DNA of 64,000 nucleotides from a candidate division WOR-1 bacterium RIFOXYB2_FULL_42_35 (GTDB taxonomy: Bacteria; Margulisbacteria; WOR-1; O2-12-FULL-45-9). Positions 11,411 to 63,085 of the stretch are shown here, piece after piece. The stretch is taken from NCBI GenBank assembly GCA_001771545.1, contig MEUC01000029.1, forward strand, positions 1,445-65,444, read 5' to 3'. The translations under genes and the position numbers were made by a program. Under the pieces are notes generated by a model. It saw nothing but the letters and a program-made list of their open reading frames with translations, was not told the DNA's origin and did no database searches. Positions within the stretch are counted from its first letter, which is position 1. Each line of letters opens with the position of its first letter.

Positions 11411-12091
11411 ATGAACAAACACTACGAAGAGCTCGGTTTCGCCAAAGTTGATCACCACCGCATTAAACGCAAAGGTTTTCCTGAAGTCATTTATGGGCAA
11501 GGGAAAACTCCAGAGCAAATTACCAAGATCGCCCAAAGCTTAACCAAAAAGAAACAAAACGTCTTAGTAACTCGGACAGATAAAAAGGCCTTCGAAGCTG
11601 TTAAGAAAGCTCTGCCTAAAGCAAAGTTTTATGAGACTGCAAGGATTATTACGGTAAAAAGACTGCCAGACCGCCAGACTTCCAGACTGCCAGACCGCCA
11701 GACTATTAGCATTATAAGTGCGGGAACCGCAGATCTGCCAGTCACCGAAGAAGCCGCTGTTACCGCTGAGTTTCTTGGACTCAAAGTTAAGAGGTTTTAC
11801 GATGTTGGCGTGGCTGGCATTCATCGTTTGATCAATAACATCAAAGAAATTAGAAAAGCTAAAGTCATAATTGTCGTTGCCGGCATGGAAGGAGCCCTCC
11901 CCTCTGTTGTTGGCGGCTTGGTTGATAAACCAATTATTGCTGTGCCAACCTCTGTTGGCTATGGGGCAAGCTTTAAGGGAGTATCTGCACTTTTAACAAT
12001 GATGAATAGCTGTGTCCCTGGAATTGCGGTCGTGAACATTGATAATGGCTTTGGTGCTGCTGTTATGGCTTATAGTATAATAAAAGTATGA
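11411..12091 (+). CDS. larB: Nickel-pincer cofactor biosynthesis protein LarB (PurE-like carboxylase/hydrolase).
   Basis: PurE-like core …[42 protein letters not shown]… in the LarB architecture. It is adjacent to larC. Confidence 0.75.
11661..11704 (+). repeat. Tandem duplication of a 20-bp unit, with a 4-bp spacer and a 24-bp period, inside larB. It encodes [16 protein letters not shown].
   Basis: gactgccagaccgccagact occurs twice in direct succession. Confidence 0.8.
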
Positions 12092-23385: not shown

Positions 23386-25012
23386 TTAGCATCATCTCCA
23401 CCTCGTGTCTTTTAACTTTCTTTAACCTGGTCTTAGGCAGTTCATCATTACGAATAATAAATTTGGCAATGCGCTTACAATCGGCAACACTGCGATTAAA
23501 CTGCTGAATCTCAATAGACAGTTTACGTTTAATAAAGTCATGACTTGTCTCGCCAATTTTCTTAAAAAAATCCTGGTCAGGCACAATCACGGCCACGACC
23601 TGTTCTGTCCCCTTGCGAATCCCTTCTTTTACTTTCTCACCCAAAACACAACACTCGGCTATTAAGGGACTTTTACTTAAAAGAAACTCCAGCTCTTCCG
23701 GATAAACATTTACCCCTGAAGAGGTAACAATAATATCCTTGGAGCGACCAGTAATAAACAAATATCCATCCTCATCCAAATAACCGACATCCCCGGTATA
23801 GAGCCAACCATTAATTAGAACTCTCGAGCTTAACTCTTTTTGTTTATAATAACCCTTCATAATATTAGGACCAAAGGCCAGGATTTCTCCCACCAGCTCT
23901 GTACCAGCAATCTTAATTTCTACTCCAGGAATAGCCTTGCCCACAGAACCAAGACGATTATTCTTTAGAGTATTGCAGGTCAGCACTGGCGCTGATTCAC
24001 TCAAACCATAGCCTTGCAGCAAAGTAAAACCTAATAGTTCAAAATTTCTAGCTAATTGCGGATCAAGGGCTGCCCCACCAGAAACAAAAAAGCGGATTTT
24101 ACCACCAAACTTCTTATGGATCACTGAAAAAAAATATTTGCCAATATTGATGCCAATCAGAGTTTTAACTGCTTTGGCTAAAAACAACAAGCCTGAGAAG
24201 ACCCTGGTTTTATTCTTGGCCTCAACTTCTCGCAGAATCCCATCGTAAAAGACTTGATACAACAAGGGAACCCCGCACATAATTGTTACATCAGTCTCCT
24301 TCATATTACGCAGGATATTATTTGACTTTAAACTTTCGGCATAGGTTATCGAAGCCCCCTTGGAAAATGGGCCCAGGAATCCGGCAGTTGTTTCAAAAGT
24401 GTGCTGCAAGGGCAAAACCGATAAAAAGGTATCGCCAGGACCAAAATCAAACAAAGAGGCTGTGCCAGAAACATCAGACATTATATTTTTATGGGTCAGC
24501 ATTACACCCTTGGGAACACCGGTTGTGCCAGAGGTATAAACAATTGAAGCCAAATCATCCGGACTGACCTCCGCACTAACTTCCCCTTCTCCCCCAGTAG
24601 CTAAGCGATCAAAGTCTTCTACAAAAATACGACTAATTTCTACACCGGTGACTTTAATAAGAGCGGAAAAGTTTCTGCCTAAAATAATTACCTTTGCCCC
24701 GCAATCACCAAGAAGAAAACTAACTTCTTCCGGTTTAAGCATGGCATCGAGGGGCACAACCACAGCACCCAGACTTGTAATCGCCAGAAAAGAGATGGGC
24801 CACTCCGGCCTGTTTTCCGACAACAAGGCAACACGATCACCATGTTTGATCCCCAGCTTTACCAAGGCAGCTTGAATTTTTCTGACCAACAAAGCAACTT
24901 CTTGATAAGTATACTTAAGATAGCGGTCTTCCTGTCTGATTTGAAAAGCGACCTGATTGCGGTATTGCTCTACACTTTCTTCAAGCAGCTGCTTAATCGT
25001 TATTATTTCCAT
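23375..25012 (-). CDS. AMP-dependent synthetase / long-chain fatty-acid–CoA (or –ACP) ligase.
   Basis: YTSGTTGVPKGVMLTHKN AMP-binding motif. It sits immediately upstream of an ACP gene. Confidence 0.8.
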   Translation of the reverse strand: MEIITIKQLLEESVEQYRNQVAFQIRQEDRYLKYTYQEVALLVRKIQAALVKLGIKHGDRVALLSENRPEWPISFLAITSLGAVVVPLDAMLKPEEVSFLLGDCGAKVIILGRNFSALIKVTGVEISRIFVEDFDRLATGGEGEVSAEVSPDDLASIVYTSGTTGVPKGVMLTHKNIMSDVSGTASLFDFGPGDTFLSVLPLQHTFETTAGFLGPFSKGASITYAESLKSNNILRNMKETDVTIMCGVPLLYQVFYDGILREVEAKNKTRVFSGLLFLAKAVKTLIGINIGKYFFSVIHKKFGGKIRFFVSGGAALDPQLARNFELLGFTLLQGYGLSESAPVLTCNTLKNNRLGSVGKAIPGVEIKIAGTELVGEILAFGPNIMKGYYKQKELSSRVLINGWLYTGDVGYLDEDGYLFITGRSKDIIVTSSGVNVYPEELEFLLSKSPLIAECCVLGEKVKEGIRKGTEQVVAVIVPDQDFFKKIGETSHDFIKRKLSIEIQQFNRSVADCKRIAKFIIRNDELPKTRLKKVKRHEVEMMLNDK

Positions 25013-25029
25013 ATTAAACTACAATGGTT

Positions 25030-25080
25030 TTCCTTAATTTTGAGCTTTGGTCTTTGATCTTTGAACTTTAGTCTTCTAGG
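25030..25080. repeat. Heptamer-periodic CTTTG repeat tract (ATTTTG-AGCTTTG-GTCTTTG-ATCTTTG-AACTTTA).
   Basis: Seen directly. A member of the dispersed low-complexity family. Confidence 0.6.
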
Positions 25081-25672
25081 CTGCCATCATCCGTAAATAC
25101 ATTGGCCCATAAATAGTACCCAGCAACAAGCCGGAAATAATGAAGTTCGCTATCAAGGCAAGCAATAAAATTACCACAACAAACCAAAATGATTTGTTTC
25201 CTGGAGTGCCCAAAATCTCGGAAAGCCCTAGAACCAGCAAATAAACCCCGTAAAGACCTAGCAAAGATAGAACCCCCAAACCAGGCACAAGAGAAAATAT
25301 GCCTACCACCCAAGTTGGGGTGGTAGAATAAACCACTACTTTCATGGCTGCATCAAAATCTACTTTTGATTCAAAATAAGGAGCCAGGCTCTTAATAATT
25401 AATGCTCCTAGCCACAAAATAGCTAAACTAAAAATATAGGCAACTATCCCACCTAGTAAAGTTAGATTAAAGGGAGCCCTCATCACTGCCCCAGACGGCA
25501 TGCGAATCCCAAAAATAGTCAGACCAATTAAGCTGGCCACCGGAGGAATTAAAGCCAAAGGCGCCGCATAATTAACAAACAATTGCTTGGCGCTTATTTT
25601 TTCCTCTTTAATACTCTGCCAGGCAATCCTGGGGTTAAAAACAAGCTCGAGAACTCTTTCCTTGATAGTCAT
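25076..25672 (-). CDS. Yip1-domain membrane protein.
   Basis: Five predicted TM helices with a Yip1-like N-terminus …IAWQSIKEE…. Confidence 0.55.
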   Translation of the reverse strand: MTIKERVLELVFNPRIAWQSIKEEKISAKQLFVNYAAPLALIPPVASLIGLTIFGIRMPSGAVMRAPFNLTLLGGIVAYIFSLAILWLGALIIKSLAPYFESKVDFDAAMKVVVYSTTPTWVVGIFSLVPGLGVLSLLGLYGVYLLVLGLSEILGTPGNKSFWFVVVILLLALIANFIISGLLLGTIYGPMYLRMMAA

Positions 25673-25783
25673 TTTTTCTCCTCCCTGTCTGCCCTCCTCC
25701 GGTGGGTAAACCGGCAGGCAGACTGTTAAAAAATCTTATCATTTACAGCTTGTCATCGCAAGGTGGTTTTGTTAAACTTTTAA

Positions 25784-27001
25784 TTGATCGAGCACAAAAA
25801 ACAGGAGACCCCTGTGTTAAAGAAACTGTCCATTATTTTATTATTGATCTGTTTCAGTCTTCAAAGTGCTTTTGCCCTTTATGGAGCAAGGCCGATGGGC
25901 ATGGGCCAAGCTTTTACAGCTGTTGCTAACGATGCCAATGCTAGCCGCTGGAACCCGGCAGGATTAGCCTTAAATCCAGAAGTAGTTATTAATAGTTCAA
26001 CTATGGCCAATAATCGCAATCGTTGGGTTGGTGATAATCTTTTAAACCTCAAGATGTGTTATGAAACAGAAATGGATCCCTTTTCCTGGATTGCCGGTGT
26101 CGGTTTAGCTTCCCTGTTCGCCTATGAAGGAGCCAGATATTTGGGGGATAAAGGAATCTTAAAAAAGGGCTGGGGCAGATCAGGAACAAAGACAGAACGC
26201 GGCCAAGCCTTGATTACAGAAGGGACCGGAGAAGCTGTTAGCTTAAAAGCTAAATTAAACAGTACCGCCAATGTTGTTCTTAAGGATACCGATCAAGCTG
26301 TTAGATCAACCGCCAGAGAGGCGGCAGACAGGGCAAGATGGTACTATCTGACCCCCTGGGCCACCCCCTGGTACAACAATCGTAATCACTCCCAACCACG
26401 AGATAAACGAGGAAATCCTACCAAAACTAAAGCCCAATTTGCTCTGGGGCTTAGCTGGCTCAATGATTACAATCCTCCCAGTGATGAAAATGCCAACTGG
26501 TACACAATTACCGTTGCTTCTGGCTTTGAGAAAAGAGTTGCCGTTGGCGGAAATATTAATATCTATAACATGGAAAAAATTAGCTCTGGCATCAGGGGTA
26601 TCGGCGGTGACCTGGATATTGGGGTGATTGCTAAACCGGTTGAGTATCTTTCTTTTGGCCTGGTTTCTCAAGGTATTTTAACCACAGACATTACTTGGCA
26701 AAATGGCAGCACCAGCCGTTATGAAATGATCACTAATATTGGCCTTGCCATTGAACCGGTTCCTGCACTAACCTTAGCGGCAGACATGCACAATGTTCTC
26801 CATCAAAACAACAGTCAGCCAACCTATCATTACGGAGTAGAAGCTGCCCTAATGCCAGGATTAATTGCCCGGGCCGGGTTATCAGACGGGAGCAAAACTG
26901 CCGGCTTAAGCCTAATAATTGGCCGGCTCACCATTGATTATGCTTATTTAGGCGGCACCTATAACCGAACTCAAATGATTGGCGGCTCCTGGAGCCTATA
27001 A
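25784..27001 (+). CDS. Outer-membrane beta-barrel protein of the FadL/TodX (OMPP1) type.
   Basis: Signal peptide, then ALYGARPMGMGQAFTAVANDANASRWNPAGLA. This matches the FadL hatch-domain N-terminal motif. Confidence 0.6.
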   Translation: MIEHKKQETPVLKKLSIILLLICFSLQSAFALYGARPMGMGQAFTAVANDANASRWNPAGLALNPEVVINSSTMANNRNRWVGDNLLNLKMCYETEMDPFSWIAGVGLASLFAYEGARYLGDKGILKKGWGRSGTKTERGQALITEGTGEAVSLKAKLNSTANVVLKDTDQAVRSTAREAADRARWYYLTPWATPWYNNRNHSQPRDKRGNPTKTKAQFALGLSWLNDYNPPSDENANWYTITVASGFEKRVAVGGNINIYNMEKISSGIRGIGGDLDIGVIAKPVEYLSFGLVSQGILTTDITWQNGSTSRYEMITNIGLAIEPVPALTLAADMHNVLHQNNSQPTYHYGVEAALMPGLIARAGLSDGSKTAGLSLIIGRLTIDYAYLGGTYNRTQMIGGSWSL

Positions 27002-27002
27002 A

Positions 27003-28511
27003 ATGTTAAAAGATCTTCTTGACGTTAAACGACCAACTACCTGGGGGAATCTTCCTCGCCTCAATCATCATTTATGCAAAGAATGGATCACCACTAATTT
27101 TAAAGACATCTTAGAAACACTGCAAAACACCCCACCGGAAAACTTGGAACCATGGAATACTCTGGGTTTTGTTTGCATTGACAACAATCTCTACCAGGAA
27201 GCAGAAAAAATCTACGATGAATTATTTAAAAAAACCCAAAAGAAACATGGCAACATCGGACTGCCCGCCTACTTTCGCGGGATTGCTCATTTTCTTCAAG
27301 GCAGATTCCAAGACGCTTATAAAGACTTTAAGATGGCCAGACAATTTGAGATTCAGACTAAAAAAGTTAGTGGCACATCTTCACGAGCTATTGCCTATAT
27401 GGAAGAGACCCTTTTTCCTACCAGGGAAATAATCAAAAACAACCAAGCCAGGCTAATTAAAGATCTTAATAATCCCCGTAGCCTTGACCACAATATTGGA
27501 CCTAACATGCTCAGAACAATTCATAAATGGAACTCAGCCACTCCCCTTTTCTCTCACAGCATTTCCCAAGGCGGCGGCTATTTCCTTACTTTAAAAAATA
27601 AACATGGTCAAACCAAAGGGATTGCCATTGATCCTGGCTATGATTTTTTTGATATTTTTAGGGACACCGGCTTGGGCATTGCCGATATTGACGCCATAAT
27701 TATTACTCATGACCATGATGACCATACCGAGTCAGTGGAAGGAATTCTTTCTCTCCTGGCTAAATATAATGATCATAATGAACAAAAAAACACTAAAGTT
27801 CTGGATATCTTTGGTTCTTCCGGCACACTGCTTAAGTTTCACGGCCTGCTTTCAGCCACAGACCTATTTGGCAATCGGGAAATAAACTTCAAGCTCTTGG
27901 TTCCGGGTTCGGAAATCACTGAAATTGAGAATGTTTCTCTCCAAGAAAAACACGGCTTCACCCTGTCAATTAAGCCGGCTCATCATACCGAACGCTGGAC
28001 CAATCAAGAGTCTGCTGTTGGTTTGGTCATCCACACCAATATCCCGGACATTAAGAATGGCGGCCAACTAAACATAGGGATCACTGGAGACACTCGCTAC
28101 GAAGTTGGCATTGGCCGGGCTTACAAGGACTGTCAGGTTTTATTACTGAATATTGGTTCCGTAGAAAAAGAAGAAGGCAAATTTTTAAGCCAACATTTGG
28201 GCATGATTGGTTGTATCAACCTATTAAAAGAGGCCCGCTTAGACAAACATCTGTTGGCCATCCTAACTGAATTTGGCGAAGAGTTTTCCGGTAAGAGAGA
28301 TATTATCAGCCGCATCTTAGAAAACTGGGCCCAACCAATGGCCGGCAACAAACAAAAACAGTTACGGGTTATTCCTGCTGATGTACACCTAGAAGTTCGT
28401 CTGGAAGACTTAAATATCCGCGAAACAGAGACTAAGGTTTTCTTCCCTTATAATATGATTGAAATTGACGAGTCTGATCCGGAAATTTTGAAATACAAGT
28501 TTAATGGCTGA
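27003..28511 (+). CDS. MBL-fold metallo-hydrolase with an N-terminal TPR-like domain.
   Basis: IITHDHDDHTESVEG (HxHxDH) plus downstream His/Asp ligands. Confidence 0.7.
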   Translation: MLKDLLDVKRPTTWGNLPRLNHHLCKEWITTNFKDILETLQNTPPENLEPWNTLGFVCIDNNLYQEAEKIYDELFKKTQKKHGNIGLPAYFRGIAHFLQGRFQDAYKDFKMARQFEIQTKKVSGTSSRAIAYMEETLFPTREIIKNNQARLIKDLNNPRSLDHNIGPNMLRTIHKWNSATPLFSHSISQGGGYFLTLKNKHGQTKGIAIDPGYDFFDIFRDTGLGIADIDAIIITHDHDDHTESVEGILSLLAKYNDHNEQKNTKVLDIFGSSGTLLKFHGLLSATDLFGNREINFKLLVPGSEITEIENVSLQEKHGFTLSIKPAHHTERWTNQESAVGLVIHTNIPDIKNGGQLNIGITGDTRYEVGIGRAYKDCQVLLLNIGSVEKEEGKFLSQHLGMIGCINLLKEARLDKHLLAILTEFGEEFSGKRDIISRILENWAQPMAGNKQKQLRVIPADVHLEVRLEDLNIRETETKVFFPYNMIEIDESDPEILKYKFNG

Positions 28512-29907
28512 GATATTTTTCAACCACTTCTCTATCATCAAGAGATACTTTCTTCCCATTAAAATCCTGAAACTGCTCATGCCCCCGCCCAGCAATTAGA
28601 ACGGTGTCTCCCTTTTTCGCCATCGACAAGGCTTGTTCAATTGCCTTCTTCCTATCTATTTGAACTTTGAGCTTTGAGCTTGGGATTTCCTTTGAACTTT
28701 GAGCTTTGGACTTTGATCTTATAATGTCATCAATGATAGCCTGCGGCTCTTCCCCATGCGGATCGTCTGTAGTCACAATAACAAGATCAGCCAATCTTCC
28801 CGCAATCTCCCCCATCACCGGCCGTTTGGCTTTATCACGATCACCCGGGCAACCAAAAACGAGAATAACTTTGCCTTCAGTTAGAGGACGAAAAGTTTCT
28901 ATTAGTTTCTGCAATGCATCTGGTGAATGGGCAAAGTCGACAATAACACGAAATGGTTGCCCACAATCAACAGGCTCAACCCGACCTGGCACAGTTTTCA
29001 AGGCTTCAATCCCTTGTTTAATAACTCTTTGGGGAACACCAAGAACTAAGGCACACTGATAAGCAGCAACTATATTATAAACATTGGGCAGGCCAATTAA
29101 ATTCGTGCGAATATCCAAAGAATTTATTCTTAAAAGCATCTCCTTAGCCATGACCTTGATACTGACAATATTGGTATCAAAGTCATTATGTTTGGTATTA
29201 CGTAATTCATGCTTAGCCTGACCGATCCCATAAGTAACAACCTCTCCTGGAACAACAGCCATAACCTTATTAGTATAGGGATCATCAGCATTAATAATCG
29301 CAATCCCATCATTAGGCAGCATTTTAAATAATTCCAGTTTGGCAGCTAAGTACTGTTCCATATTTTGATGAAAATCAAGGTGATCGTGGGTCAAGTTTGT
29401 AAAGATAGCCACAGCAAACTCGCAACCAGCAACCCGCAACTGACTCAAGGCATGTGAGGAAACCTCCATGACACAATGGGTTACTCCCCTTTTAACCATT
29501 TCCGCCAACATCGGCTGCAGATCTGATGCCTCTGGAGTTGTTAAAGAAGAATTAATGGTGCCAATCACTTCGGTCTTATGACCGGCTTTTTTTAGAATCG
29601 ATTGAATAAGATAAGCTGTTGTGGTTTTTCCGTTTGTTCCAGTAATACCAATTAATTTTAATTTTTTAGAAGGATAATCATAAACCTCACAAGCCAACTC
29701 AGCCAAAGCTTTTCTTGCCGAGGAAACCTTCTTAAACTCTATTCCGGCAGGAACTTGGACATCTTTTTCAGCGACAATTAACTTGGCCCCGGCCTCAACT
29801 GCCTGAGGAATAAAATCAGTCCCATTAAACTTAGCCCCCGGAATAGCTACATAAATATAGCCCGGCTTAACCTTTCTTGAATCGTGTGTTATGCCCTTAT
29901 ACTTCAT
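28501..29907 (-). CDS. murE: UDP-N-acetylmuramoyl-L-alanyl-D-glutamate–2,6-diaminopimelate ligase.
   Basis: GITGTNGKTTTAYL and the DNPR-type motif. The probable true start is MKYKGITHDSRK at 29907. The 29949 ORF start lies in repeat DNA. Confidence 0.85.
   Translation of the reverse strand: MKYKGITHDSRKVKPGYIYVAIPGAKFNGTDFIPQAVEAGAKLIVAEKDVQVPAGIEFKKVSSARKALAELACEVYDYPSKKLKLIGITGTNGKTTTAYLIQSILKKAGHKTEVIGTINSSLTTPEASDLQPMLAEMVKRGVTHCVMEVSSHALSQLRVAGCEFAVAIFTNLTHDHLDFHQNMEQYLAAKLELFKMLPNDGIAIINADDPYTNKVMAVVPGEVVTYGIGQAKHELRNTKHNDFDTNIVSIKVMAKEMLLRINSLDIRTNLIGLPNVYNIVAAYQCALVLGVPQRVIKQGIEALKTVPGRVEPVDCGQPFRVIVDFAHSPDALQKLIETFRPLTEGKVILVFGCPGDRDKAKRPVMGEIAGRLADLVIVTTDDPHGEEPQAIIDDIIRSKSKAQSSKEIPSSKLKVQIDRKKAIEQALSMAKKGDTVLIAGRGHEQFQDFNGKKVSLDDREVVEKYLSH
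28650..28712. repeat. 63-bp CAAAGNN heptamer-repeat insertion lying in frame inside murE. It encodes SKSKAQSSKEIPSSKLKVQ.
   Basis: gaactttgagctttgagcttgggatttcctttgaactttgagctttggactttgatctt. The reverse complement translates in the murE frame. Confidence 0.7.
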
Positions 29908-29929
29908 AAAAGCTCCAAGATCAAAGTAC

Positions 29930-30090
29930 AAAGTCCAAAATAAGTCCAAAATCCCAAGAGCAAACTTACAAATTTGATCTTTTGACTTGGATCTTTGATA
30001 TTGTTTTGTCCCGCTTCCATCATCTGATAATTATTGCGGGATCCCGCAAGGCGGGAATCTTTGGACCTAGATCTTTGATCTTCCATATTA
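29930..30090. repeat. Palindromic array of heptamer-type repeats (CAAAGTC… then …TTTGATC) with an embedded TCCCGC-AAG-GCGGGA hairpin.
   Basis: Seen directly in the murE–femX intergenic region. Confidence 0.6.
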
Positions 30091-31155
30091 TTCCCCCAAA
30101 GAATCCTCAATCTTCCCTTTCTTAATCAAACTCCGTAAATTTTGAAACCACTGCAAACCATGCTCAAACAAATTGTAGAACAAGAGACTATGGGAAAAGT
30201 CGTAGGCACCAATATATTTAACAACTTTACCGCCAAAACCTTTTTTGAAACGATAAACACCAAACAATGGGTGCCCCTCAACAGGATTAGCAGGAATGCC
30301 CCACAAATCATAGGTTTTATAGCCTTTTTCTTTGGCCCATTGAATAATCTGCCAATGCAATAAGTGGTTGGGCATTTTATTGCGATGTTCTGAAGTTGAA
30401 GCCCCATACATGTACCAGACCTTGGAACCAAAGAAAAAAACAATTACCCCGGCAATCGGCATATTATTATAACAAGCAATAAAGTTTGTCCCTAGGCCCT
30501 TTTCAAAGAGAGTCTTTCTAATGGCCTGATAATATTTCAAGGGATGGACTAAGAAGTTGTCCCTCTGAGCGGTTTTTTCATACATCTCATAGAAAATATT
30601 GATCCCCTGCTCACTCGGATCCTCTCGGACGATAATGACCTTTTTCTCCGCCAAACGCACATTGTAGCGGGTTTTCTCATCAAAGCTCATGAGGATTTTA
30701 TCTGCATCAGGTTGTAAGTCCAAAAGAATAGTTGCCCGTGGCTGGATTTGCTTTTTAGCCTTTTCAAAACCTGAACTATTGATAGTATCTAAAACCAAAT
30801 GTTGATTCTCCAACACAGCTGGATCAACCTTGAGAGAAATCGCCTTATGTTTTTCGGCTTCTTTTTCTACTGCATCAAGTAAAAATCCTAAAAGTTGGCG
30901 GTTGCCAAAATCTACAACTGGACCGCGAGGGGCATAGAAAATTGAATGTTTGATGTAGGGAATTTCTCGTTTAAGAATCGATATACCAGCAACTATTTTG
31001 CCCTGATCCTCCATTGCGATGCGAATCGGCTGCCAACCAAATTGTGATTTCAATTCTCCCCATTCAAATGATTGCAGGACTGGACATTCGGAAGAATTAG
31101 CCACAAAATCATTCCACAGTTTTCTATCAGGATAAGTAATTAGTCGGGATTGCAT
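30088..31155 (-). CDS. FemAB-family peptidoglycan peptide-bridge aminoacyl-tRNA transferase (FemX-like).
   Basis: Fem/GNAT tandem-fold motifs …KVWYMYGASTSEHRN… Adjacent to murE. Confidence 0.7.
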   Translation of the reverse strand: MQSRLITYPDRKLWNDFVANSSECPVLQSFEWGELKSQFGWQPIRIAMEDQGKIVAGISILKREIPYIKHSIFYAPRGPVVDFGNRQLLGFLLDAVEKEAEKHKAISLKVDPAVLENQHLVLDTINSSGFEKAKKQIQPRATILLDLQPDADKILMSFDEKTRYNVRLAEKKVIIVREDPSEQGINIFYEMYEKTAQRDNFLVHPLKYYQAIRKTLFEKGLGTNFIACYNNMPIAGVIVFFFGSKVWYMYGASTSEHRNKMPNHLLHWQIIQWAKEKGYKTYDLWGIPANPVEGHPLFGVYRFKKGFGGKVVKYIGAYDFSHSLLFYNLFEHGLQWFQNLRSLIKKGKIEDSLGE

Positions 31156-31366
31156 GTCTAACGGTTATTATATCAACCATTAATTAGAAGGACAAACAAA
31201 AAGCGCCCGGCTTTAGCTTTCAAATCCTGCAAGGGACTTACTCGCCAAAGCCAGGCTGTTTTTTATTCGTCCCCGATGTAACATCGGAAAACAGGAATAA
31301 GTCTTGGACTTAATTTTGCACGCTCTGCATTTCCGTAGAGATACAAACTCCGGCATCTTTAAGTAT

Positions 31367-31448
31367 TCGACCAGGTGAACCGCGTTGTTGTTATAACGAT
31401 TATCAGGGTTGTTGTTGTTGTTGCGGTTCGCGTTGTTCAGAGAACGCC
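31367..31448 (-). repeat. DGR template repeat (TR), adenine-rich on the minus strand with AAC codons.
   Basis: 82-bp match to 32845-32926 with 12 mismatches. All 12 are A in this copy (minus strand). Confidence 0.85.
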
Positions 31449-31460
31449 GGATTTACAGGC

Positions 31461-32456
31461 TTATCCCTTTATTAAAATATTAGAAAACAATTTTCTCCTT
31501 AGATGGAATGAATTGGCAAATACGGCGTACCCCAGCCAGCTTTGTATTGAGCAAGTAATCTTGGGTATGGACATTAAGTTGCTTTGAAAAAGGCTGATAT
31601 ATTTTCTCATTCTTATTTTAAAGCGCTTGACGTTTTCTTTGGCCACCAGCTTATGGCTGGGATAAACCTTATAGCCAAGAAACTTCACGCCGTTCTTAGT
31701 TGGATAGACCTGGCATTTATTAGCATGCAGTTGCAGCTTTAGCTTTTCAAGATAATCAGCAATTCTTTTTCTGGCCTGGTTTAGCTGTCCTTTATCATTA
31801 CCAAATACTATCAGGTCGTCCATATAACGGAGGTAAAACCGGCATTTAAGGTTTTCTTTTAAATAATGGTCTAACCCATTGAGATAAAGATTGGCAAATA
31901 TCTGGCTAGCTAAATTCCCAATCGGAATCCCAGGAGAAGGTGTTGAATCAATAATTAGTTTAATCAGCCAAAGAGCTTCCGGGTCTTTTATCTTATCCAT
32001 AATCATCCCGAGTAAGATTTCGTGATCTATGGAAGCAAAATAGTTTTTAACGTCGCACTTCAAAGCATATTTATTTTTGCGGCAATATACTTGAAACCGG
32101 CTAACAGCCCGATGGCTGCCTTTGCTTTTCCGGCAAGCGTAGGAATCGAAGATCAGCACCCGATCAAAAATGGGCTCAATGACATTGCAAAGTGCATGCT
32201 GGGCAACTCGATCTCGGTAAGGCAAGGCACTGATTAGTCTCTTTTTCGGATCATAGATATGGAATTGCTTGTAGTGACCAACCCGATATGTGTGGCTTTG
32301 GAGTTCTGCCTGAAGAGTAAAAATCTCTTTTTCAAAACCAAGATTAAAATCGCTGACAGGGGTTTTGAGCTTCTTGCCTCTCTGGGCCTTCCCGGCCGCT
32401 AAAAGGAGGTTCTCAAAAGAGCAGATTTTCTCATAAAGATTATGATGCCTTTTCAT
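31461..32456 (-). CDS. Diversity-generating-retroelement reverse transcriptase.
   Basis: RT motifs …RYMDDLIVFG… and the DGR-specific IPIGNLASQIFANLYLNGLD. Flanked by TR and VR. Confidence 0.85.
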   Translation of the reverse strand: MKRHHNLYEKICSFENLLLAAGKAQRGKKLKTPVSDFNLGFEKEIFTLQAELQSHTYRVGHYKQFHIYDPKKRLISALPYRDRVAQHALCNVIEPIFDRVLIFDSYACRKSKGSHRAVSRFQVYCRKNKYALKCDVKNYFASIDHEILLGMIMDKIKDPEALWLIKLIIDSTPSPGIPIGNLASQIFANLYLNGLDHYLKENLKCRFYLRYMDDLIVFGNDKGQLNQARKRIADYLEKLKLQLHANKCQVYPTKNGVKFLGYKVYPSHKLVAKENVKRFKIRMRKYISLFQSNLMSIPKITCSIQSWLGYAVFANSFHLRRKLFSNILIKG

Positions 32457-32778
32457 GTTTTAGCCAGCCCCCAACCTGGGAACCGATTTCCAAAAGATAT
32501 CGGGCAGCGAACTCATAGCTCTTAAGATTGATCAAACGCAGATCATGGCTAAGGCGAAACAGATAGCGCAGCTTTTCAATTTCAAGATTTGCGTTCTTAA
32601 GCGCATTAGTTTTGTCTTTGGAATATTGGGCTTCAATGAGAAGCTCCAACAGGCCAATTACTTTATTTTCGATTCTTTCTCCGAGGGTATATCTTTGATT
32701 GCGCGGGAACTTCGCAATGTGGGGGACGACCCATCTGAGGAAATCATAGGAACAGGTTACGACTTTTGGCCCTTCCAT
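32440..32778 (-). CDS. Probable DGR accessory variability determinant (Avd-like small helical protein).
   Basis: 112-aa helical ORF between the VR-bearing target and the RT. Overlaps the RT start by 17 nt. Confidence 0.5.
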   Translation of the reverse strand: MEGPKVVTCSYDFLRWVVPHIAKFPRNQRYTLGERIENKVIGLLELLIEAQYSKDKTNALKNANLEIEKLRYLFRLSHDLRLINLKSYEFAARYLLEIGSQVGGWLKHEKAS

Positions 32779-32837
32779 ATTATGCTAAAATTTTCCTTCC
32801 CCACCCCTAAAAAAGTAAAAGGATAAAGCTTAATTTA

Positions 32838-33500
32838 TTAGTCCTCGACCAGGTGAACCGCGCTGCTGCCATAACGATCATCAGGGCTGCTGCTGAAGTT
32901 GCGGTTCGCGTAGTACAGAGAACGCCAATAGTAGGTGTCACTCCCCTTGCTGCTTTCTACCAAAAACCAATTATTCCCTCTCAGTTTAGCTTTCACATCA
33001 GCTGGTAAAGCCACAAATTCAGCCTCAGTCATAAACCTAAACTTTCTGCCTCGTTCATTTGCTCCTTTAATATAGTTCTTCGCATCATCCACATTTAAAA
33101 ACGTCAATGTCTCTCCGCTCGGCTCTTTCAAGCGGTCCCGAAGCGCTTCCTTGTTATGGCCGCTAACTTTCTCTGGCTTTAAGAATTGTGCGGCTTCAGC
33201 GTCTGTTAATTCTCCTATCATTATTTTTTTATAAGTTTGCCCCTCAACATTAAGCATATGCGGGAAAATTGTCTCGGGCTGGACTATATCCACAAGTTCT
33301 ATTTGAATGGCAACAGGATCTCGCCTTTGAGCTAGTAGAGATGGGAGGTCAGCGACCTTGTCTTCTGGTCTAAAACCTGGTCCTTTATGACCTGCCAGTC
33401 TTTTTGCCATTGCCTCTACTTTGGCTTTGTCTGACACTCCATCACTGGCACGGACTAGAACAGAACCTAAACTCTTTTTATCAATCCTTAAAAAACTCAT
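32838..33500 (-). CDS. DGR variable (target) protein with a minimal C-type-lectin/FGE-like fold. The VR lies at the C-terminus.
   Basis: …RKFRFMTEAEFVA… then WRSLYYANRNFSSSPDDRYGSSAVHLVED, encoded by the VR. Confidence 0.75.
   Translation of the reverse strand: MSFLRIDKKSLGSVLVRASDGVSDKAKVEAMAKRLAGHKGPGFRPEDKVADLPSLLAQRRDPVAIQIELVDIVQPETIFPHMLNVEGQTYKKIMIGELTDAEAAQFLKPEKVSGHNKEALRDRLKEPSGETLTFLNVDDAKNYIKGANERGRKFRFMTEAEFVALPADVKAKLRGNNWFLVESSKGSDTYYWRSLYYANRNFSSSPDDRYGSSAVHLVED
32845..32926 (-). repeat. DGR variable repeat (VR).
   Basis: Pairs with the TR at 31367-31448. The substitutions A→G (8) and A→T (4) all fall at TR adenines. Confidence 0.85.
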
Positions 33501-33588
33501 TCATCTTCCTCCTCGCATTGCCCTTGTTAAACCTGGCGGGCTTTGCTAATATATATATCGTAAGGTTTTTTAAGAAATTTCAGTTTAT

Positions 33589-33897
33589 TTGAAAATAGTT
33601 TTGGGAGGAGAAGGCATGGTGCCAAAAAAAGAACTTAACACGGCAGTTAAACTCGCCAAAGAATACGGTGTGGGAAAATTGTATTTGTTTGGGTCTTCTT
33701 TGCATAAAAAATCCAGCGCAGTGAACGATTACGACTTCGCCGTAGCAGGCATCGCCCCTTCCAGGTTCTTTGCGTTTTATGGCAAATTATTTAGGGCTTT
33801 AAGCAAACCCGTCGATCTTGTCGATCTTTCGGAAAAATCTCTTTTTAATTCTCTCATAATAAGGGAAGGGAAGAAAATCTATGATAAATCTTCCTGA
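33589..33897 (+). CDS. Minimal nucleotidyltransferase (MntA-like antitoxin).
   Basis: GKLYLFGSSLHKKSSAVNDYDFAV matches the pol-beta NTase motif GS…D.D. Its 3' end overlaps the following HEPN gene. Confidence 0.65.
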   Translation: MKIVLGGEGMVPKKELNTAVKLAKEYGVGKLYLFGSSLHKKSSAVNDYDFAVAGIAPSRFFAFYGKLFRALSKPVDLVDLSEKSLFNSLIIREGKKIYDKSS

Positions 33898-34297: not shown

Positions 34298-34334
34298 CAG
34301 CCAGGCCGCAAACTATTATAAAAAATGCAGCTTT

Positions 34335-34916: not shown

Positions 34917-34924
34917 AATATCAG

Positions 34925-35052
34925 TATACCAGTGAATCAGAGCGAGAGTATCAGAGAAACAGAATATTAGAAAATCAGAGCACGAATTATTATCTGATAT
35001 TCTGATCATCTAATAATCTAATATTCTGGCTCTGATACACTGATTCACTGAT
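34925..35052. repeat. Nested inverted-repeat structure built from ATCAGAG/CTCTGAT units.
   Basis: CCAGTGAATCAGAGC…GTATCAGAGAAACAGAATATTAG ‖ CTAATATTCTGGCTCTGATAC…CACTGATTCACTG. It lies between convergent genes. Confidence 0.6.
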
Positions 35053-35055
35053 GCT

Positions 35056-35666: not shown

Positions 35667-37289
<1,623 letters not shown>

Positions 37290-48624: not shown

Positions 48625-49311
48625 ATGATAAAGATCAAAGATCAAAATTTAAAGATCAAAACAAATCCCCAGATCAAAATCCCAAAGAATAAAAAGATTG
48701 GAGTTTTGATCTTATTATTTGGGATTTGTTTTGGATTTTGGTCTTTGAGCTTTGAACTTCCTGCCAAGGCCTGGAGCATCAACACCGAACTCAGGCAAGA
48801 AATAGCGGCTAAGCAAGCCGCGGTGGCTAAAGCACCCAACAGCGCCCTAGCCCACTTTGACCTGGGCATCACCTATGCTTACACCAACAACATCCAAAAA
48901 GGCTGGGACGAACTAAAAAAAGTTGAAGAACTAAACCCCAAGTTTCGCTCACAAGGCAGGAATCTTTACATTAACAAGGTCACCGCAGATCCCGATGATT
49001 GGCGGCTGCGGTTTCGCCTGGCTTTTGCCTACTATTTTAACAATGAAAAAAATGATGCCATCAGAGAACTTAAAAATGTTTTAATTATTGATCCTAATAA
49101 TGTTTGGGCTTATGGCTACTTGGCTCTAATTTATGGGGAACTAAACGAAGTTGATACCGCCATAGATTACACTAAAAAAGGCATAAAGATTGATAGCAAT
49201 GTTGCTGCCCTTCATCTCCTCCTGTCAGAAGGCTATTATAAAAAAGGCAACTCTTGGGGCGGTTTTATAGAAAGAATGGAAGCAGTCCGTTTACTAGCTT
49301 TAGGATTTTAA
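48625..49311 (+). CDS. TPR-repeat protein with an N-terminal signal anchor. The first ~55 codons are encoded by a palindromic heptamer-repeat element.
   Basis: TPR motifs …AHFDLGITYAY… and WAYGYLALIYGE. The N-terminus MIKIKDQNLKIK…GVLILLFGICFGFWSLSF lies within repeat DNA. Confidence 0.6.
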   Translation: MIKIKDQNLKIKTNPQIKIPKNKKIGVLILLFGICFGFWSLSFELPAKAWSINTELRQEIAAKQAAVAKAPNSALAHFDLGITYAYTNNIQKGWDELKKVEELNPKFRSQGRNLYINKVTADPDDWRLRFRLAFAYYFNNEKNDAIRELKNVLIIDPNNVWAYGYLALIYGELNEVDTAIDYTKKGIKIDSNVAALHLLLSEGYYKKGNSWGGFIERMEAVRLLALGF

Positions 49312-51305: not shown

Positions 51306-53735
51306 TTACTTCTTCGCCACTTTGATAATCTTCTTAACCAAACCAACCGCTCCCACGGCATCCATACTATATGAAGCGCCGATGCGGTCGGCATAACCTT
51401 TGGTAACCACGGCCCCACCGACTAAAAGAGGAATATCAAGCTTAGCAGCTTTTAACTGATCGTTAACCACCCCCATTTCAACCATTGTTGTAGTTAAAAG
51501 GGCTGAAAGAGCAATCGCATTAGGTTTTTCGGCTTTGGCAACTTTAACAATTTCTTCCGGCGCAACGTCTTTGCCAAGATCAATTACTACAAAACCATGA
51601 TTCTCTAGCAACATCTTAACAATGTTTTTACCAATATCGTGAATGTCTCCCTTAACCGTGGCTAAAACTATTTTCCCTTTGATTTTAACTTTATCTTGAG
51701 GGATATTAGCTTTACAAATAGCAAAACCAGCACTCATTGATTCGGCTGATTCTATAACCTGGGGCAAAAAATATTGACCACCAGAAAACTTTTTGCCAAC
51801 TACCTCCATGCCTGGAACTAAACCAAGATTTATTACCTTCTGCGGATCATATTTTTTTTCGATCGCCTGCTTAACCAAAACTTCTACGGCTTCCAGATTC
51901 CCGTCAATTACAGCTTCTTTAATGTCCTGATAGCCTGTGAACTTGATCTCCTTAACACTCGCCTCCCTCTTCTTCTCTGCTGGCTTGCCAGACCTCTTTG
52001 CCTTATCAACCTCCGCCTTAAACTTTCTTAACAGCTCTTCCCTTGCAACCGCCTTCTTGGCCTTAAAGGCCTTTAAGACCTTCCGTACCTCAGCATCACC
52101 AACATCAATTATCGCGGCGTCAAGTCCATAAGACAAAGCTAACTGAAAATAGAGCGCGTTTAATTTAGAACGATTGGGCATGCCATGAGAAACGTTACTA
52201 ATGCCCAGAATAGTTTTAACCCCAAATCTTTCTTTGATCATGGGTATTGCTTTAAGGGCTTCTAAGCAAGGCTGAATCCCCACTCCTGCAGTCATCACCA
52301 GGTTATCAACAAAGATGTCTCCTTTGGCAATGCCTACAGCCTGGGCTGTGTGAACAATTTTTTCGGCAATACGCAAGCGATCAGCTGCAGAATTAGGCAT
52401 ACCATGCTCATCGAGGGTTAAAGCAATAATTGCTGCCCCGTATCTTTTGGCCAGAGGAATGATTTTTTCTAAACTTTCTTTTTTGCCGCTAACAGAATTT
52501 AACAATGCCCGACCACAAAAAACCTTTAAACCAGCCTCTAGGGCAGCAACACTGGGAGAATCTATTGAAAGAGGCAGATCAGAAGCTGATTGAACTATTT
52601 TAACAGCCTGATGCATTACTGCTGACTCCACAATATCACGAGTGGAAATGTTCACATCCAAGAGATCAGCTTTGGCCTTTGTCTGACCGGCAGCTTCAGA
52701 ACGCATAATCCGCGTCTTGCCTCCCCTAATCTCTTCTTGAAAAATCTTTCGACCAGTTGGATTGATCCTCTCGCCAACCAGAAAGGGTTTATCGGCGACT
52801 TCAACAACTTTGGTTCGACTGGCAAATTTTGTGCTTTGAATTTGTGATTTTTGATTTGTTTGGGGTTTAGAATTTAGAACTTTGGATTTCACGGCTTGGA
52901 TATGCTCCGGCGTAGTCCCACAACACCCGCCAATTATCCTAACGCCTAGCTTTGCAAATTTTTCCGCATACGCCCCAAACTGTCTAGCAGTCATTTTGTA
53001 AATAGCTTTATCACCAACAAGCTCTGGCATACCCGCATTAGGCATGACCATGACTGGCAATTTTGTGCAAGCAAGTAATCTTCCGGCAACCTTGAGCATG
53101 CCTTGGGGTCCGGTGGAACAGTTGGCAGAAACAATATCAACCCCCAAAGCTTCGAGAACCACAACTGCAACTTCAGGGGGAGTGCCATAAATAGTTTTTT
53201 CCACATCATCGTAGGTCATACTCGCAATAACAGGCAACTTGGTTTCGTTCTTAACTGCAATAACAGCTGCCCGCATTTCTTGCAGATCAGAAATAGTTTC
53301 CACACAAATGACATCAACCCCACCCTCTTCCAGCGCTTTGGCTTGCTCGGCAAAAGCAGCGTAAGCTTGATCAAAAGTAACATCTCCTAATGGATCAATT
53401 AGTTTTCCTAAAGGACCAATTGAACCGGAAACAAAACCTTTCACTCCGACAACTTTTCTGGCCAGTTTGGTAGCAGCAATATTTATCTCTTTAACTTTTT
53501 TCTCTGATTTATAATCGGCTAACTTAATGGCGTTAGCGCCAAAAGTGTTAGTTTCTAAAATATCAGCACCAGCCTCAACATAAGCCTTGTGGATAGACTG
53601 GACTAATTCAGGTCGTTTTAAATTTTGCAGATCAAAGCAATCTTCTGGCTTAACACCACCATTCATCAATTGTGTGCCCATGGCACCATCAATGACTAAG
53701 ATTCTTTTATTTAAAGCTTCTAAAAACCTACTCAT
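51306..53735 (-). CDS. metH: Cobalamin-dependent methionine synthase with Hcy, pterin and B12 domains. There is no C-terminal reactivation domain.
   Basis: Hcy-binding GGCCGTTP, a pterin-binding barrel, and the B12-binding DxHxxG motif (GDIHDIGKN). Confidence 0.8.
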   Translation of the reverse strand: MSRFLEALNKRILVIDGAMGTQLMNGGVKPEDCFDLQNLKRPELVQSIHKAYVEAGADILETNTFGANAIKLADYKSEKKVKEINIAATKLARKVVGVKGFVSGSIGPLGKLIDPLGDVTFDQAYAAFAEQAKALEEGGVDVICVETISDLQEMRAAVIAVKNETKLPVIASMTYDDVEKTIYGTPPEVAVVVLEALGVDIVSANCSTGPQGMLKVAGRLLACTKLPVMVMPNAGMPELVGDKAIYKMTARQFGAYAEKFAKLGVRIIGGCCGTTPEHIQAVKSKVLNSKPQTNQKSQIQSTKFASRTKVVEVADKPFLVGERINPTGRKIFQEEIRGGKTRIMRSEAAGQTKAKADLLDVNISTRDIVESAVMHQAVKIVQSASDLPLSIDSPSVAALEAGLKVFCGRALLNSVSGKKESLEKIIPLAKRYGAAIIALTLDEHGMPNSAADRLRIAEKIVHTAQAVGIAKGDIFVDNLVMTAGVGIQPCLEALKAIPMIKERFGVKTILGISNVSHGMPNRSKLNALYFQLALSYGLDAAIIDVGDAEVRKVLKAFKAKKAVAREELLRKFKAEVDKAKRSGKPAEKKREASVKEIKFTGYQDIKEAVIDGNLEAVEVLVKQAIEKKYDPQKVINLGLVPGMEVVGKKFSGGQYFLPQVIESAESMSAGFAICKANIPQDKVKIKGKIVLATVKGDIHDIGKNIVKMLLENHGFVVIDLGKDVAPEEIVKVAKAEKPNAIALSALLTTTMVEMGVVNDQLKAAKLDIPLLVGGAVVTKGYADRIGASYSMDAVGAVGLVKKIIKVAKK
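52827..52895. repeat. Heptamer-type repeat tract lying in frame in the metH interdomain linker. It encodes KSKVLNSKPQTNQKSQIQSTK.
   Basis: ctttgaatttgtgatttttgatttgtttggggtttagaatttagaactttggatttcac. Confidence 0.6.
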
Positions 53736-60322: not shown

Positions 60323-60418
60323 GACAACCTTTTTCTACTCCTTGTCCTGCTCCTTTTCTAAAAGACCCAGGTACAGGACGAGGACGAAAACAAGGACTAG
60401 GATCAAGAACAGGGTAAA

Positions 60419-61966: not shown

Positions 61967-63085
61967 TTAGTTTATTACACCACCACCAAGCACTTCTCCC
62001 CCTTGATAAAAAACCACTGACTGTCCTGGAGTTATTGATCTCTGGGGCTGCTGAAAAACAACCTTTGCTTTGTTGCCCTCTAAAGGATAAAGAACTGCTT
62101 CATGCTCAACCGAATTATAGCGTATTTTTGCTTTAACCTTCAAAGGCTCAATTGGTCCCTGGCCTGAAACATAACAAAGATCTGCAGCAACTAATTCTTT
62201 AGCCAAAAGATCAGCCTGATCCCCAATTATAACCGCATTTTTTTCTGCGTCGATCCTCAGCACATATTTTGGCAGACTCATATGGTGTCCGATCCCTTTT
62301 CTTTGCCCCAAGGTATAGAAAGCAATACCCTCATGCCGACCAACAACCTTGCCTGTCATATCAATTATTGGTCCAGGCTTTACCACAGCCGGGCAATTTT
62401 CTTTTAAAAAACGGACATAATCATCGTCCTCAACAAAACAGATTTCCTGACTTTCTTCTTTATCATGAACTGCTAAATTAAACTTCTTAGCCAATTGCCT
62501 AACTTCCGTTTTAGTGAACTCCCCCATCGGAAACAACGTCCGCCTCAACGTCTCCTGATTTAACATATAAAGCACATACGACTGATCCTTTTTAGCATCT
62601 TTCCCCTTTAATAAGTTATAACCATTCTTATTCCCCTCTGGGAGAGGGGTTAGGGGTGAGGGCACAATACGAACATAGTGCCCCGTCGCTATATAATCAC
62701 AACCAAGTTCGTCAGCCTTTTTTAGAAGATGATCAAATTTAATAAATTGATTACAGCGAATACAAGGGTTTGGTGTACGGCCATTTTTATACTCATCAAT
62801 AAAATTGTCTATGACTTTTTCTTTAAAGATGTCGCGAAAGTTTAAAGTATAATGGGGAATTTTAAGGACATCCGCTACAGATTTAGCATCATTAACAGCT
62901 TCAAGAGAACAACAACCACCAAAGGCTTTTTTACTGGGCCAGATTTGCATAGTAACCCCAAGAACATCATGCCCTTGCTCTTTTAACAAGGCAGCAGTAA
63001 CAGAGGAATCAACTCCTCCAGACATAGCAACAAGGATTTTTGGTTTATTTTGGTTAGTCATTAGAAAAAATAATCCGGCAGCCAA
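61967..63085 (-). CDS. mnmA: tRNA-specific 2-thiouridylase MnmA. Carries a short GC-rich palindromic insertion.
   Basis: PP-loop AMSGGVDSSV, and the catalytic Cys residues. Confidence 0.85.
   Translation of the reverse strand: MAAGLFFLMTNQNKPKILVAMSGGVDSSVTAALLKEQGHDVLGVTMQIWPSKKAFGGCCSLEAVNDAKSVADVLKIPHYTLNFRDIFKEKVIDNFIDEYKNGRTPNPCIRCNQFIKFDHLLKKADELGCDYIATGHYVRIVPSPLTPLPEGNKNGYNLLKGKDAKKDQSYVLYMLNQETLRRTLFPMGEFTKTEVRQLAKKFNLAVHDKEESQEICFVEDDDYVRFLKENCPAVVKPGPIIDMTGKVVGRHEGIAFYTLGQRKGIGHHMSLPKYVLRIDAEKNAVIIGDQADLLAKELVAADLCYVSGQGPIEPLKVKAKIRYNSVEHEAVLYPLEGNKAKVVFQQPQRSITPGQSVVFYQGGEVLGGGVIN

Follow-up and report, generated by a model that had tools for sequence, protein, structure and literature searches.

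Heptanucleotide repeat arrays in the spacers, protein loops and interdomain linkers of a WOR-1 bacterium and its Margulisbacteria relatives

The 64,000-nucleotide (nt) stretch of DNA analyzed here, which we call the window, comes from a groundwater organism, candidate division WOR-1 bacterium RIFOXYB2_FULL_42_35; the window's MurE and MetH each match a protein of this bacterium with 100% identity. Tandem arrays of 7-nt units are scattered along it, both in intergenic spacers and, in frame, inside conserved genes such as murE, metH and mnmA (Table 1). All close homologs of these MurE and MetH proteins are labeled Margulisbacteria, Saganbacteria or WOR-1, and Margulisbacteria/WOR-1 form the non-photosynthetic sister lineage of Cyanobacteria. 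We found no paper on such heptamer arrays in Margulisbacteria. The arrays are not an assembly artifact, since nine independently assembled contigs (L006-L014, from other samples and assemblers) carry the same sequence and match the window at 99.9-100%.

The relatives we compared are the nearest one, L015 (MurE 81% identical), and further Margulisbacteria loci designated L016, L018 and L099-L104. For MetH, a profile search of metagenome contigs also supplied an outgroup of 69 genes from other phyla (at most 44% identity), taken from among the matches listed. A MurE search of genome contigs yielded no genome of the host clade, all its matches being distant MurE genes of Rhodothermales and Bacteroidetes.

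Period-7 arrays in the window

Tandem Repeats Finder (TRF) reported eight period-7 arrays in the window, 236 nt in total, where dinucleotide shuffles would lead one to expect 1.8 arrays and 31 nt (maximum 95); its period-7 arrays include those at 25039-25069, 28659-28720, 48630-48660 and 52828-52859. Runs of at least three TTTG or CAAA motifs at exact 7-nt spacing occur six times, whereas 200 shuffles contain 0.15 such runs on average and never more than one; none occurs in the window at periods 5, 8 or 10. A preliminary description of the window, made from its letters alone, had listed several period-7 arrays, and arrays do lie at or near every one of those places, far above chance. Its view of them as a single CAAAG family cannot be kept. 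The window holds at least nine arrays, with units GNTCAAA, AAAnnCn, CCCTNAC, CAGGAC and TCAGA; the unit beside the tRNA gene is of a different sequence, and heptamer units of many sequences occur across the clade, along with one or more octamers.

The units are exactly 7 nt long and stand in tandem, head to tail. They occupy many dispersed loci and belong to more than one unit family, in the window as in its relatives, and at a single locus their copy number and sequence differ between related genomes, as seen in MurE, in the spacer between the Yip1 and AMP-binding genes, and in MetH. In each of these respects they are heptanucleotide arrays of the kind called long simple-sequence repeats (long SSRs) or short tandemly repeated repetitive (STRR) sequences. 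Some sequence is nonetheless shared between sites: GNTCAAA units are common to four or five of them, AAGATCAAAG is the start of three array copies, and four of the five occurrences of the 9-mer AAATCCCAA fall within arrays. The GNTCAAA sharing and the placement of this 9-mer mean that some dispersal, or some sequence preference, remains to be accounted for.

A period-7 run in nadA (61636) was rejected as an insertion; its length is the same as in the orthologs, and we therefore regard it as probably coincidental.

Table 1. Genes and repeat features of the window, with positions counted from its first nucleotide
Feature	Position	Strand	Details
metH, 809 aa	51306..53735	-	S-methyl_trans, Pterin_bind, B12-binding_2 and B12-binding domains
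metH array	52827..52889	-	in frame; 9 degenerate units, exactly 63 nt; linker between Hcy and pterin domains (KSKVLNSKPQTNQKSQIQSTK); lag-7 identity 0.62
murE, 468 aa	28501..29907	-	Mur_ligase, Mur_ligase_M and Mur_ligase_C domains; P0001 100% identical
murE array	28659..28718	-	in frame; heptamer array, 60 nt; loop of C-terminal domain; encodes (R)SKSKAQSSKEIPSSKLKVQ(I)
femAB/murE element	29908..30087	-	composite 178-nt insertion, femAB stop to murE start; dG -59.7 kcal/mol, z -4.9
TPR hairpin	48628..48760	+	forward AAAGATC/AAATCCC and inverted TTTGATC/GGGATTT units; dG -47.1 kcal/mol, z -6.9
Yip1/AMP-binding spacer array	25033..25067	-	direct, intergenic; 5 units GACTAAA GTTCAAA GATCAAA GACCAAA GCTCAAA (transcribed strand); fills the 63-nt spacer
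Zn-ribbon arrays	34940..35055	-	forward/inverted, TCAGA/TCTGA type; downstream of Zn-ribbon gene; dG -38.8, z -5.8
tRNA-side hairpin	60335..60415	-	CAGGAC/CAAGGAC, forward/inverted; directly 3' of tRNA gene 60419-60492
MnmA loop array	62640..62662	-	in frame; CCCTNAC x3 and small hairpin; loop after ATGHYVR (SPLTPLPEG)
Octamer array	11660..11707	+	in frame; AGACYKCC x6, 48 nt (RLPDRQTS x2); 226-aa protein

The MetH linker

In metH, the array forms the linker between the homocysteine (Hcy) and pterin domains. The preliminary description had recognized that role but put the array at about 69 nt. Between the motifs GGCCGTxPEHIxxV and KFASRTKV, the linker is about 21 residues long in nearly all of 119 MetH homologs, and in these it is usually periodic at seven residues, as in KSEIRNSKSETNSRSEIRN, KSQIPNSKSQINPK and KLKIKNEKLKIKE. 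Since 7 and 3 have no common factor, every trinucleotide of a cyclic 7-nt unit is read as a codon; three copies of AAATCCG thus give KSEIRNP, and three of AAATCCC give KSQIPNP, among the MetH linker peptides. At least 8 of 14 positions agree with such a three-frame heptamer reading in 66 of the 119 linkers. Only 12 background segments out of 360 reach that level, as do 5 linkers out of 119 after shuffling.

The DNA tells the same story. Lag-7 identity over the whole linker is 0.55-0.77 in all six Margulisbacteria lineages compared, with a best 49-nt window of at least 0.6 in each, and the identity peak lies at lag 7, not lag 21. The 69 outgroup linkers, among the matches listed, equal these in median length (38 residues, as measured), and none reaches a lag-7 identity of 0.6 (maximum 0.57). 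As the outgroup linkers are equally long but aperiodic, the metH array adds no length and occupies a linker that already existed.

The unit itself changes from lineage to lineage: AAAnnCn in the window, AAGnnAC in L099, AAATCCG in L100, AAAATCC in L101, AAATTAA in L102, and AAATACG with TCCGAAA in L103. The linker amounts to nine units (63 nt) in five of the sampled Margulisbacteria lineages and to 57-84 nt in three others, the lengths seen being 57, 60, 63 and 84 nt. From these comparisons, the metH array appears to be an ancient, length-constrained linker of nine units that extends across the phylum, and not a recent insertion.

Comparison of units within and between MetH arrays adds to this picture. 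In the left halves, identity among the units of one array (0.57-0.86) is clearly above that between orthologous positions (0.29-0.68), which is itself no higher than between non-orthologous positions; the exception is the window array against L100, with 0.64 within and 0.68 between. In the right halves only the L100 array exceeds the orthologous identity (0.57-0.86 within, 0.61-0.68 between), and a central AAACAAA/AAGCAAA unit is conserved. Measured on three arrays, these values indicate what may be concerted evolution under a constraint on length.

Inserts of another recurrent type, which resemble translated G/C-rich palindromic repeats, occupy these same linkers and loops, namely the MetH linkers of P0179, P0180, P0185, P0204 and P0205 and the L103 MnmA loop; HPYPLSPSPLxRGKGxKGLGV and SLWERGGGSGLAGEG are examples of their peptides.

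The MurE loop

The murE gene starts at MKYKG and not at the upstream TTG at 29949. Its array, previously given as 63 nt in nine units, consists of four GNTCAAA units, an irregular 11-nt core and three further units, which on the coding strand read GATCAAA GTCCAAA GCTCAAA GTTCAAA GGAAATCCCAA GCTCAAA GCTCAAA GTTCAAA. The array lies in a segment, from the helix after TTDDPH to the DRKxAI motif, whose length varies greatly among 28 aligned homologs. In an AlphaFold model with a mean predicted local distance difference test (pLDDT) score of 84.8, the insert is coil (residues 411-426), and because pLDDT falls below 50 at residues 413-419, a disordered surface loop is predicted. On this model, the array is placed in frame at a surface-exposed site of a conserved gene, and the interdomain linker of MetH is a predicted site of the same kind.

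Related MurE loops carry arrays of other units. That of L015 has GTCCACT three times and is 10 codons (30 nt) shorter than the window loop, L016 has about nine units of the AAATCCA type, and L018 has five of GAAAGTA/GAAAGTC. More broadly, 59 of 105 MurE loops contain a 10-residue stretch in which at least seven positions follow the three-frame translation of one heptamer, compared with 0 of 105 when shuffled. Because the loop bears heptamers throughout the clade, the window array is not a first-time insertion; it would rather be a lineage-specific expansion and re-homogenization of an array present in the common ancestor with L015. The suggestion that coding arrays grow in steps of 21 nt fails for murE, where the array is 60 nt long and the loop exceeds that of L015 by 30 nt, and it does not hold strictly for MetH, whose linkers vary as described above.

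Translation as a filter

Reading in three frames exposes a repeat to stop codons, and the coding arrays avoid them. TGA occurs in each of TTTGATC, TTTGAGC and TTTGAAC, and every coding copy in murE and metH is oriented as CAAAG. In the AAATTAA array of L102, the third unit, in which the frame would read TAA, is AAATGAA instead; in L018, GTA and GTC alternate exactly at the positions where TAG would be read. Moreover, GGAAATCC is found in the MurE loops of both the window and L016, in different reading frames. This avoidance of stops, together with the shared sequence read in different frames, identifies the arrays as DNA-level repeats filtered by translation and not as peptide repeats. The earlier proposals that the repeats are of DNA, lie in frame in conserved genes, and have their frame preserved by selection are borne out by the lag-7 periodicity and by the stop avoidance and in-frame lengths of the murE and metH arrays. 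The sites are structurally permissive, as the low-confidence coil of MurE indicates.

The same evidence bears on whether the periodicity could be a by-product of selection on the proteins, whether for flexible linkers rich in Lys, Ser and Gln or for 7-residue peptide repeats. The peptides are indeed hydrophilic and of low complexity, they lie in linkers, and the length of the MetH linker is conserved. Yet the DNA peak stands at lag 7 and not at lag 21, the peptides follow the three-frame heptamer reading, the same units occur in non-coding spacers and inverted arms, GGAAATCC is read in two frames in two lineages, and outgroup linkers of equal length, among the matches listed, are aperiodic. 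We regard this explanation as effectively refuted.

Length variation within the population was assessed over 22593-39907, a span that includes murE, the femAB/murE spacer, the Yip1 spacer and the Zn-ribbon hairpin; the metH, TPR, mnmA and octamer arrays fall outside the nine compared contigs. No variant of array length was found over that span among the nine assemblies, whose few differences from the window all lie outside arrays. Within the 90% clusters, members can be told apart only by where the start codon was called or by a contig break. Either turnover is slow on population timescales or minor alleles are hidden by consensus assembly, and the active mechanism once proposed shows no present-day activity in these identical arrays. 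A phase-variable contingency locus was likewise rejected, given the lack of repeat-length heterogeneity in the nine contigs and the in-frame state of the murE, metH and mnmA arrays.

Hairpin elements and gained sequence

Two of the elements are of a different build. The direct-only arrays, in murE, in metH and in the Yip1 spacer, are unstructured; those in the two genes have no inverted repeats and no fold (dG -4.9 kcal/mol for murE and -2.2 for metH, both with z above 0). The femAB/murE element and the TPR hairpin, unlike them, have inverted arms. The forward-then-inverted layout that had been proposed as common therefore holds for these two and for the hairpin beside the tRNA gene and not for the direct arrays.

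Between femAB and murE, the element comprises outer and inner inverted arms of CAAAG/CTTTG units, the AAATCCCAA motif and an internal GC hairpin (TCCCGCCTTGCGGGA), of which the window holds no second copy. The terminal inverted arms are 24 nt long and 79% complementary, and the murE start may be imperfectly duplicated at the element (ATGGAAGAT and ATGAAGTAT). In L015 the element is absent, and femAB and murE overlap at ATGA. Gene callers annotate a 60-residue open reading frame (MEDQRSRSKDS...FVSLLLGFWTYFGLCTLILELL) wholly on the element, with a hydrophilic half from the CAAAG arm and a hydrophobic one from the CTTTG arm; the call may be spurious, or else the frame could be a way for a small membrane protein to arise de novo.

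The second hairpin covers the start of a tetratricopeptide repeat (TPR) protein gene, where, as first described, the repeat supplies a Lys-rich and a hydrophobic segment. These are the n-region and h-region of a signal peptide: the forward arm encodes MIKIKDQNLKIKTNPQIKIPKNKK, rich in Lys, and the inverted arm encodes the hydrophobic IGVLILLFGICFGFWSLSF, after which come ELPAKA and W. The TPR protein of the relative (P0244), which falls into the same 90%-identity cluster, is 30 residues shorter and carries a plain signal peptide, MKKLFSLLLVILLASSVYA followed by W. On this comparison, about 90 nt at the 5' end of the gene are a genuine gain that replaced an ordinary signal peptide. A Joint Genome Institute (JGI) contig of 1884 nt (P0243) differs from the window in the first 13 TPR codons (48625-48665, inside the hairpin repeat), which is probably an assembly break at the repeat and not a real variant.

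The Yip1/AMP-binding spacer measures 63 nt in the window, with five clean units, and 64 nt in L015, where it is weakly periodic. At the position orthologous to the arrays downstream of the Zn-ribbon gene, L015 and L016 have CAAGACA arrays, and the CAGGAC/CAAGGAC family seen beside the tRNA gene recurs downstream of the Zn-ribbon gene in those two relatives. In the window and in L103 the MnmA loop after ATGHYxR holds arrays, as it does in L101, where the array is a TAGGGGT/CTCCCTA hairpin. The claim that the arrays are lineage-specific insertions thus survives in part, for the 10 codons gained in MurE, the 178-nt spacer and the gain of about 90 nt in the TPR gene, and fails for MetH, to which the array adds no length. 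The finding named beforehand as one that would refute that claim, the same inserts in distant taxa, is seen in part: distant members of the phylum too carry heptamer arrays in the MurE loop and MetH linker, with different units.

The hairpins invite the view that the arrays are functional cis-elements, either A-rich heptamers bound by a protein for single-stranded nucleic acids or hairpins that act as terminators, mRNA stabilizers or translational regulators, and that selection for such a function maintains them. They stand at gene ends or starts (after femAB, the Zn-ribbon gene and the tRNA gene, and over the TPR start) with strongly negative z; others have suggested that TAACTGA and G-rich heptamer arrays are regulatory, and cold-shock proteins bind heptamer repeats (PMC4679880, PMC4692102). 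We judge it improbable that this accounts for the arrays. Unit sequences at the same site are not conserved between lineages, the hairpins lack the GC stem and T-run of intrinsic terminators, the coding arrays are unstructured, and an Rfam scan of the window matched only the tRNA and none of the arrays.

Arrays and nested palindromes across the phylum

Arrays of period 7 and 14 number 11.6 per 100 kilobases (kb) in 163 kb of Margulisbacteria loci, each fetched because it contains an array and hence subject to ascertainment bias, compared with 1.07 in 940 kb of outgroup contigs. The related loci hold three to six period-7 arrays per 20 kb, with varied units. Among 31 arrays, 25 pairs share a unit where 27.9 are expected; since sharing is not above chance, one phylum-wide family is unsupported.

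Within some arrays of relatives sits a perfect 21-nt palindrome (core GCCTGCCGGCAGGC), in frame at L103 8880-8905 in MetH and at L104 1600-1630 in MurE. The L103 linker is an array of the L100 type with a 21-nt insertion, CCTTGCCTGCCGGCAGGCAGG (peptide LACRQAG), and the L104 MurE loop has CTGCCTGCCGGCAGGCACGGCA (peptide CLPAGTA) within a GGAACAC array; P0116 and P0120 lack it. The palindrome is missing from L100 and P0116, whose arrays are otherwise equivalent, and it was not found in the window. A longer hairpin lies at L018 7825, and several more homologs carry peptide traces of the 21-nt palindrome (LPAGRQ, LACRQAG).

Such palindromes raise the question of whether each array copy is a discrete miniature mobile element, akin to a miniature inverted-repeat transposable element (MITE), a Rickettsia palindromic element (RPE) or a small dispersed repeat (SDR), with arms made of heptamer units and in-frame copies that are survivors of insertion. 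Their presence inside arrays of two different genes fits this idea, as do the 178-nt spacer absent in L015, with its inverted arms and possible murE-start duplication, the 5' gain in the TPR gene, the three copies that start with AAGATCAAAG, and the clustering of AAATCCCAA in arrays; RPEs, for their part, show that palindromes can insert in frame into metabolic genes (PMC10969869). We nevertheless consider it unlikely. The murE and metH arrays have neither inverted arms nor secondary structure, copies share no ends and differ from one another in length and in the number and order of their units, and distant lineages carry arrays of other units at the same loop or linker. In addition, the MetH array adds no length, unit sharing across the 31 arrays does not exceed expectation, no transposase is associated with the copies, and no more CAAAG arrays were found in 9 further kb of the same contig.

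Other repeats and elements of the window

The octamer array sits just upstream of the AIRC domain (which starts at residue 99) of a LarB/PurE-like protein, and so provides a second non-triplet repeat period acting as a protein linker. Overlapping tandem repeats of period 27, 18 and 9 (consensus GTTTCTTAAGGGAGTAAAGGCCTTTATG) occupy 54953-55108, in the spacer between a gene ending at 54942 and one starting at 55167.

A complete diversity-generating retroelement (DGR), with bAvd and reverse-transcriptase genes, lies on the - strand at 31355-33500, next to femAB and 1.3 kb from arrays. Its template repeat (31355-31448) and its variable region (32833-32926, at the 3' end of a 220-residue target gene) are 82% identical, and 13 of their 17 differences fall at a + strand T, that is, an A on the coding strand. 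Two nucleotidyltransferase/HepT-like toxin-antitoxin pairs flank the region, at about 36959-37622 and 33616-34297. The arrays were rejected as DGR targets: the template and variable repeats are unrelated to them, and L015 has arrays and no DGR at the locus.

Discussion

We think it likely that the arrays are heptanucleotide simple-sequence repeats of the STRR/long-SSR type, distributed lineage-wide in Margulisbacteria/WOR-1/Saganbacteria, turned over by slippage or unequal exchange, and filtered by selection. Replication slippage or unequal exchange of 7-nt units would create the arrays, homogenize them and turn them over, leading to concerted evolution within a site and to unit sequences that differ between lineages. 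Arrays would persist only where sequence is unconstrained: in intergenic spacers, in disordered loops (MurE, MnmA), in linkers (MetH, the AIRC protein) and in signal peptides (TPR). Within genes, purifying selection would keep the total length a multiple of three, and the orientation and unit variants would have to yield no stop in the three frames through which a 7-nt unit cycles, while in spacers paired forward and inverted arrays could form long hairpins. Because some hairpin arrays are net insertions, a dispersal step would also operate. The enzymes probably gain no specific function from the arrays, which may be neutral.

Several observations weigh against turnover by slippage as the full account. 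Local slippage alone leaves the sharing of GNTCAAA among four or five sites and the clustering of AAATCCCAA (4/5) unexplained, and it does not account for the 178 nt and the roughly 90 nt of net gain. The absence of length variation in nine assemblies implies that slippage, if any, is slow on population timescales. In addition, the measure of concerted evolution comes from only three arrays of equal length, and the density estimate for Margulisbacteria is biased by loci picked for containing arrays.

The arrays join a known class. Among long SSRs, heptamers show the strongest over-representation in many prokaryotes, for which polymerase slippage has been proposed (PMC4692102, PMC4679880), and arrays of GGGAATC in Xanthomonas and GGGGAYT in Nostoc are dispersed, often inverted and variable between relatives, with 32% intragenic in Nostoc (PMC4692102). 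The resemblance to the STRR sequences of Calothrix and Nostoc and to long SSRs extends to dispersed tandem 7-nt units, several unit families per genome, a preference for spacers near gene ends, forward and inverted stem-loop pairs, a sizeable intragenic fraction, and differences of length and sequence at one locus between related genomes. Unlike STRR sequences, originally defined in a (heterocystous) cyanobacterium, those described here belong to Margulisbacteria/WOR-1, have in the window A-rich units (GNTCAAA, AAATCCN) that form no G-quadruplexes, and across the phylum make up loops and linkers that lie at orthologous positions in MurE, MetH and MnmA, with the nine units of MetH constant while their sequence changes.

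Other systems resemble the arrays in part. RPEs are in-frame repeat insertions in metabolic genes of Rickettsia (PMC10969869), and they share with our arrays, as do intragenic MITEs, the tolerance of in-frame repeat DNA at permissive sites of conserved metabolic genes. RPEs differ in that each is a discrete palindrome of about 100-150 bp encoding a conserved peptide, where murE and metH have direct arrays of 60-63 nt; with no inverted repeats, fold or shared ends, these two arrays were rejected as RPEs or MITEs. The TAACTGA repeats of marine Beggiatoaceae, some Cyanobacteria and Bacteroidetes can be coding in only one orientation owing to stops (PMC4679880). Like our arrays, they are genome-dispersed heptamer direct repeats that read through in one orientation and expand intergenic regions relative to close relatives; they differ in consisting of a single unit in two to six copies, almost always upstream of starts, as opposed to many units and long in-frame arrays. 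Phase-variable contingency loci also have short tandem repeats in or beside genes with slippage presumed, but the window arrays lie in frame in essential housekeeping genes, without length heterogeneity in the nine assemblies.

The nested palindromes recall the SDRs of Nostoc, which Elhai et al. (2008) reportedly described as hairpin elements of 21-27 nt that are frequently nested in tandem heptamers and that one genome may have at an orthologous site and another lack. The 21-nt palindrome of L103 MetH and L104 MurE, absent in L100 and P0116, is similar in these respects; it differs in lying in frame in protein loops, and in being absent from the window. To our knowledge its sequence is unrelated to published SDR families.

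A more speculative idea, to which we assign a low probability, is that Cyanobacteria and Margulisbacteria share an ancient enzymatic system that writes, homogenizes and disperses heptamer arrays and nested palindromes. The candidate activities would be a templated or sequence-specific polymerase, a nuclease or a reverse transcriptase, and not passive slippage. If real, such a system would explain the genome-specific units, the insertions at new sites, and a nine-unit MetH linker rewritten at constant length.

Our findings extend a known kind of repeat, the heptamer repeats of cyanobacteria, to a new phylum, and do not represent a new insertion mechanism. What seems to be undescribed before is the presence of arrays in orthologous loops across a phylum, a MetH linker of fixed unit number with a changing unit, and a signal peptide encoded by a hairpin. 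These cases illustrate how non-triplet repeats can build essential proteins, as in the 21-residue MetH linker made from nine 7-nt units in all three frames, or in the TPR signal peptide, where the A-rich arm of a DNA hairpin becomes the Lys-rich n-region and the T-rich arm becomes the hydrophobic h-region. They should be useful for studying selection on repeat DNA against stops and frameshifts, the origins of low-complexity segments, and spurious calls of small open reading frames on repeats. Heptamer repeats and SDR-like nested palindromes reach the sister phylum of Cyanobacteria, which suggests that the process behind them predates the split or is shared, and the small genomes of Margulisbacteria may be a good place to look for the cause of heptamer repeats.

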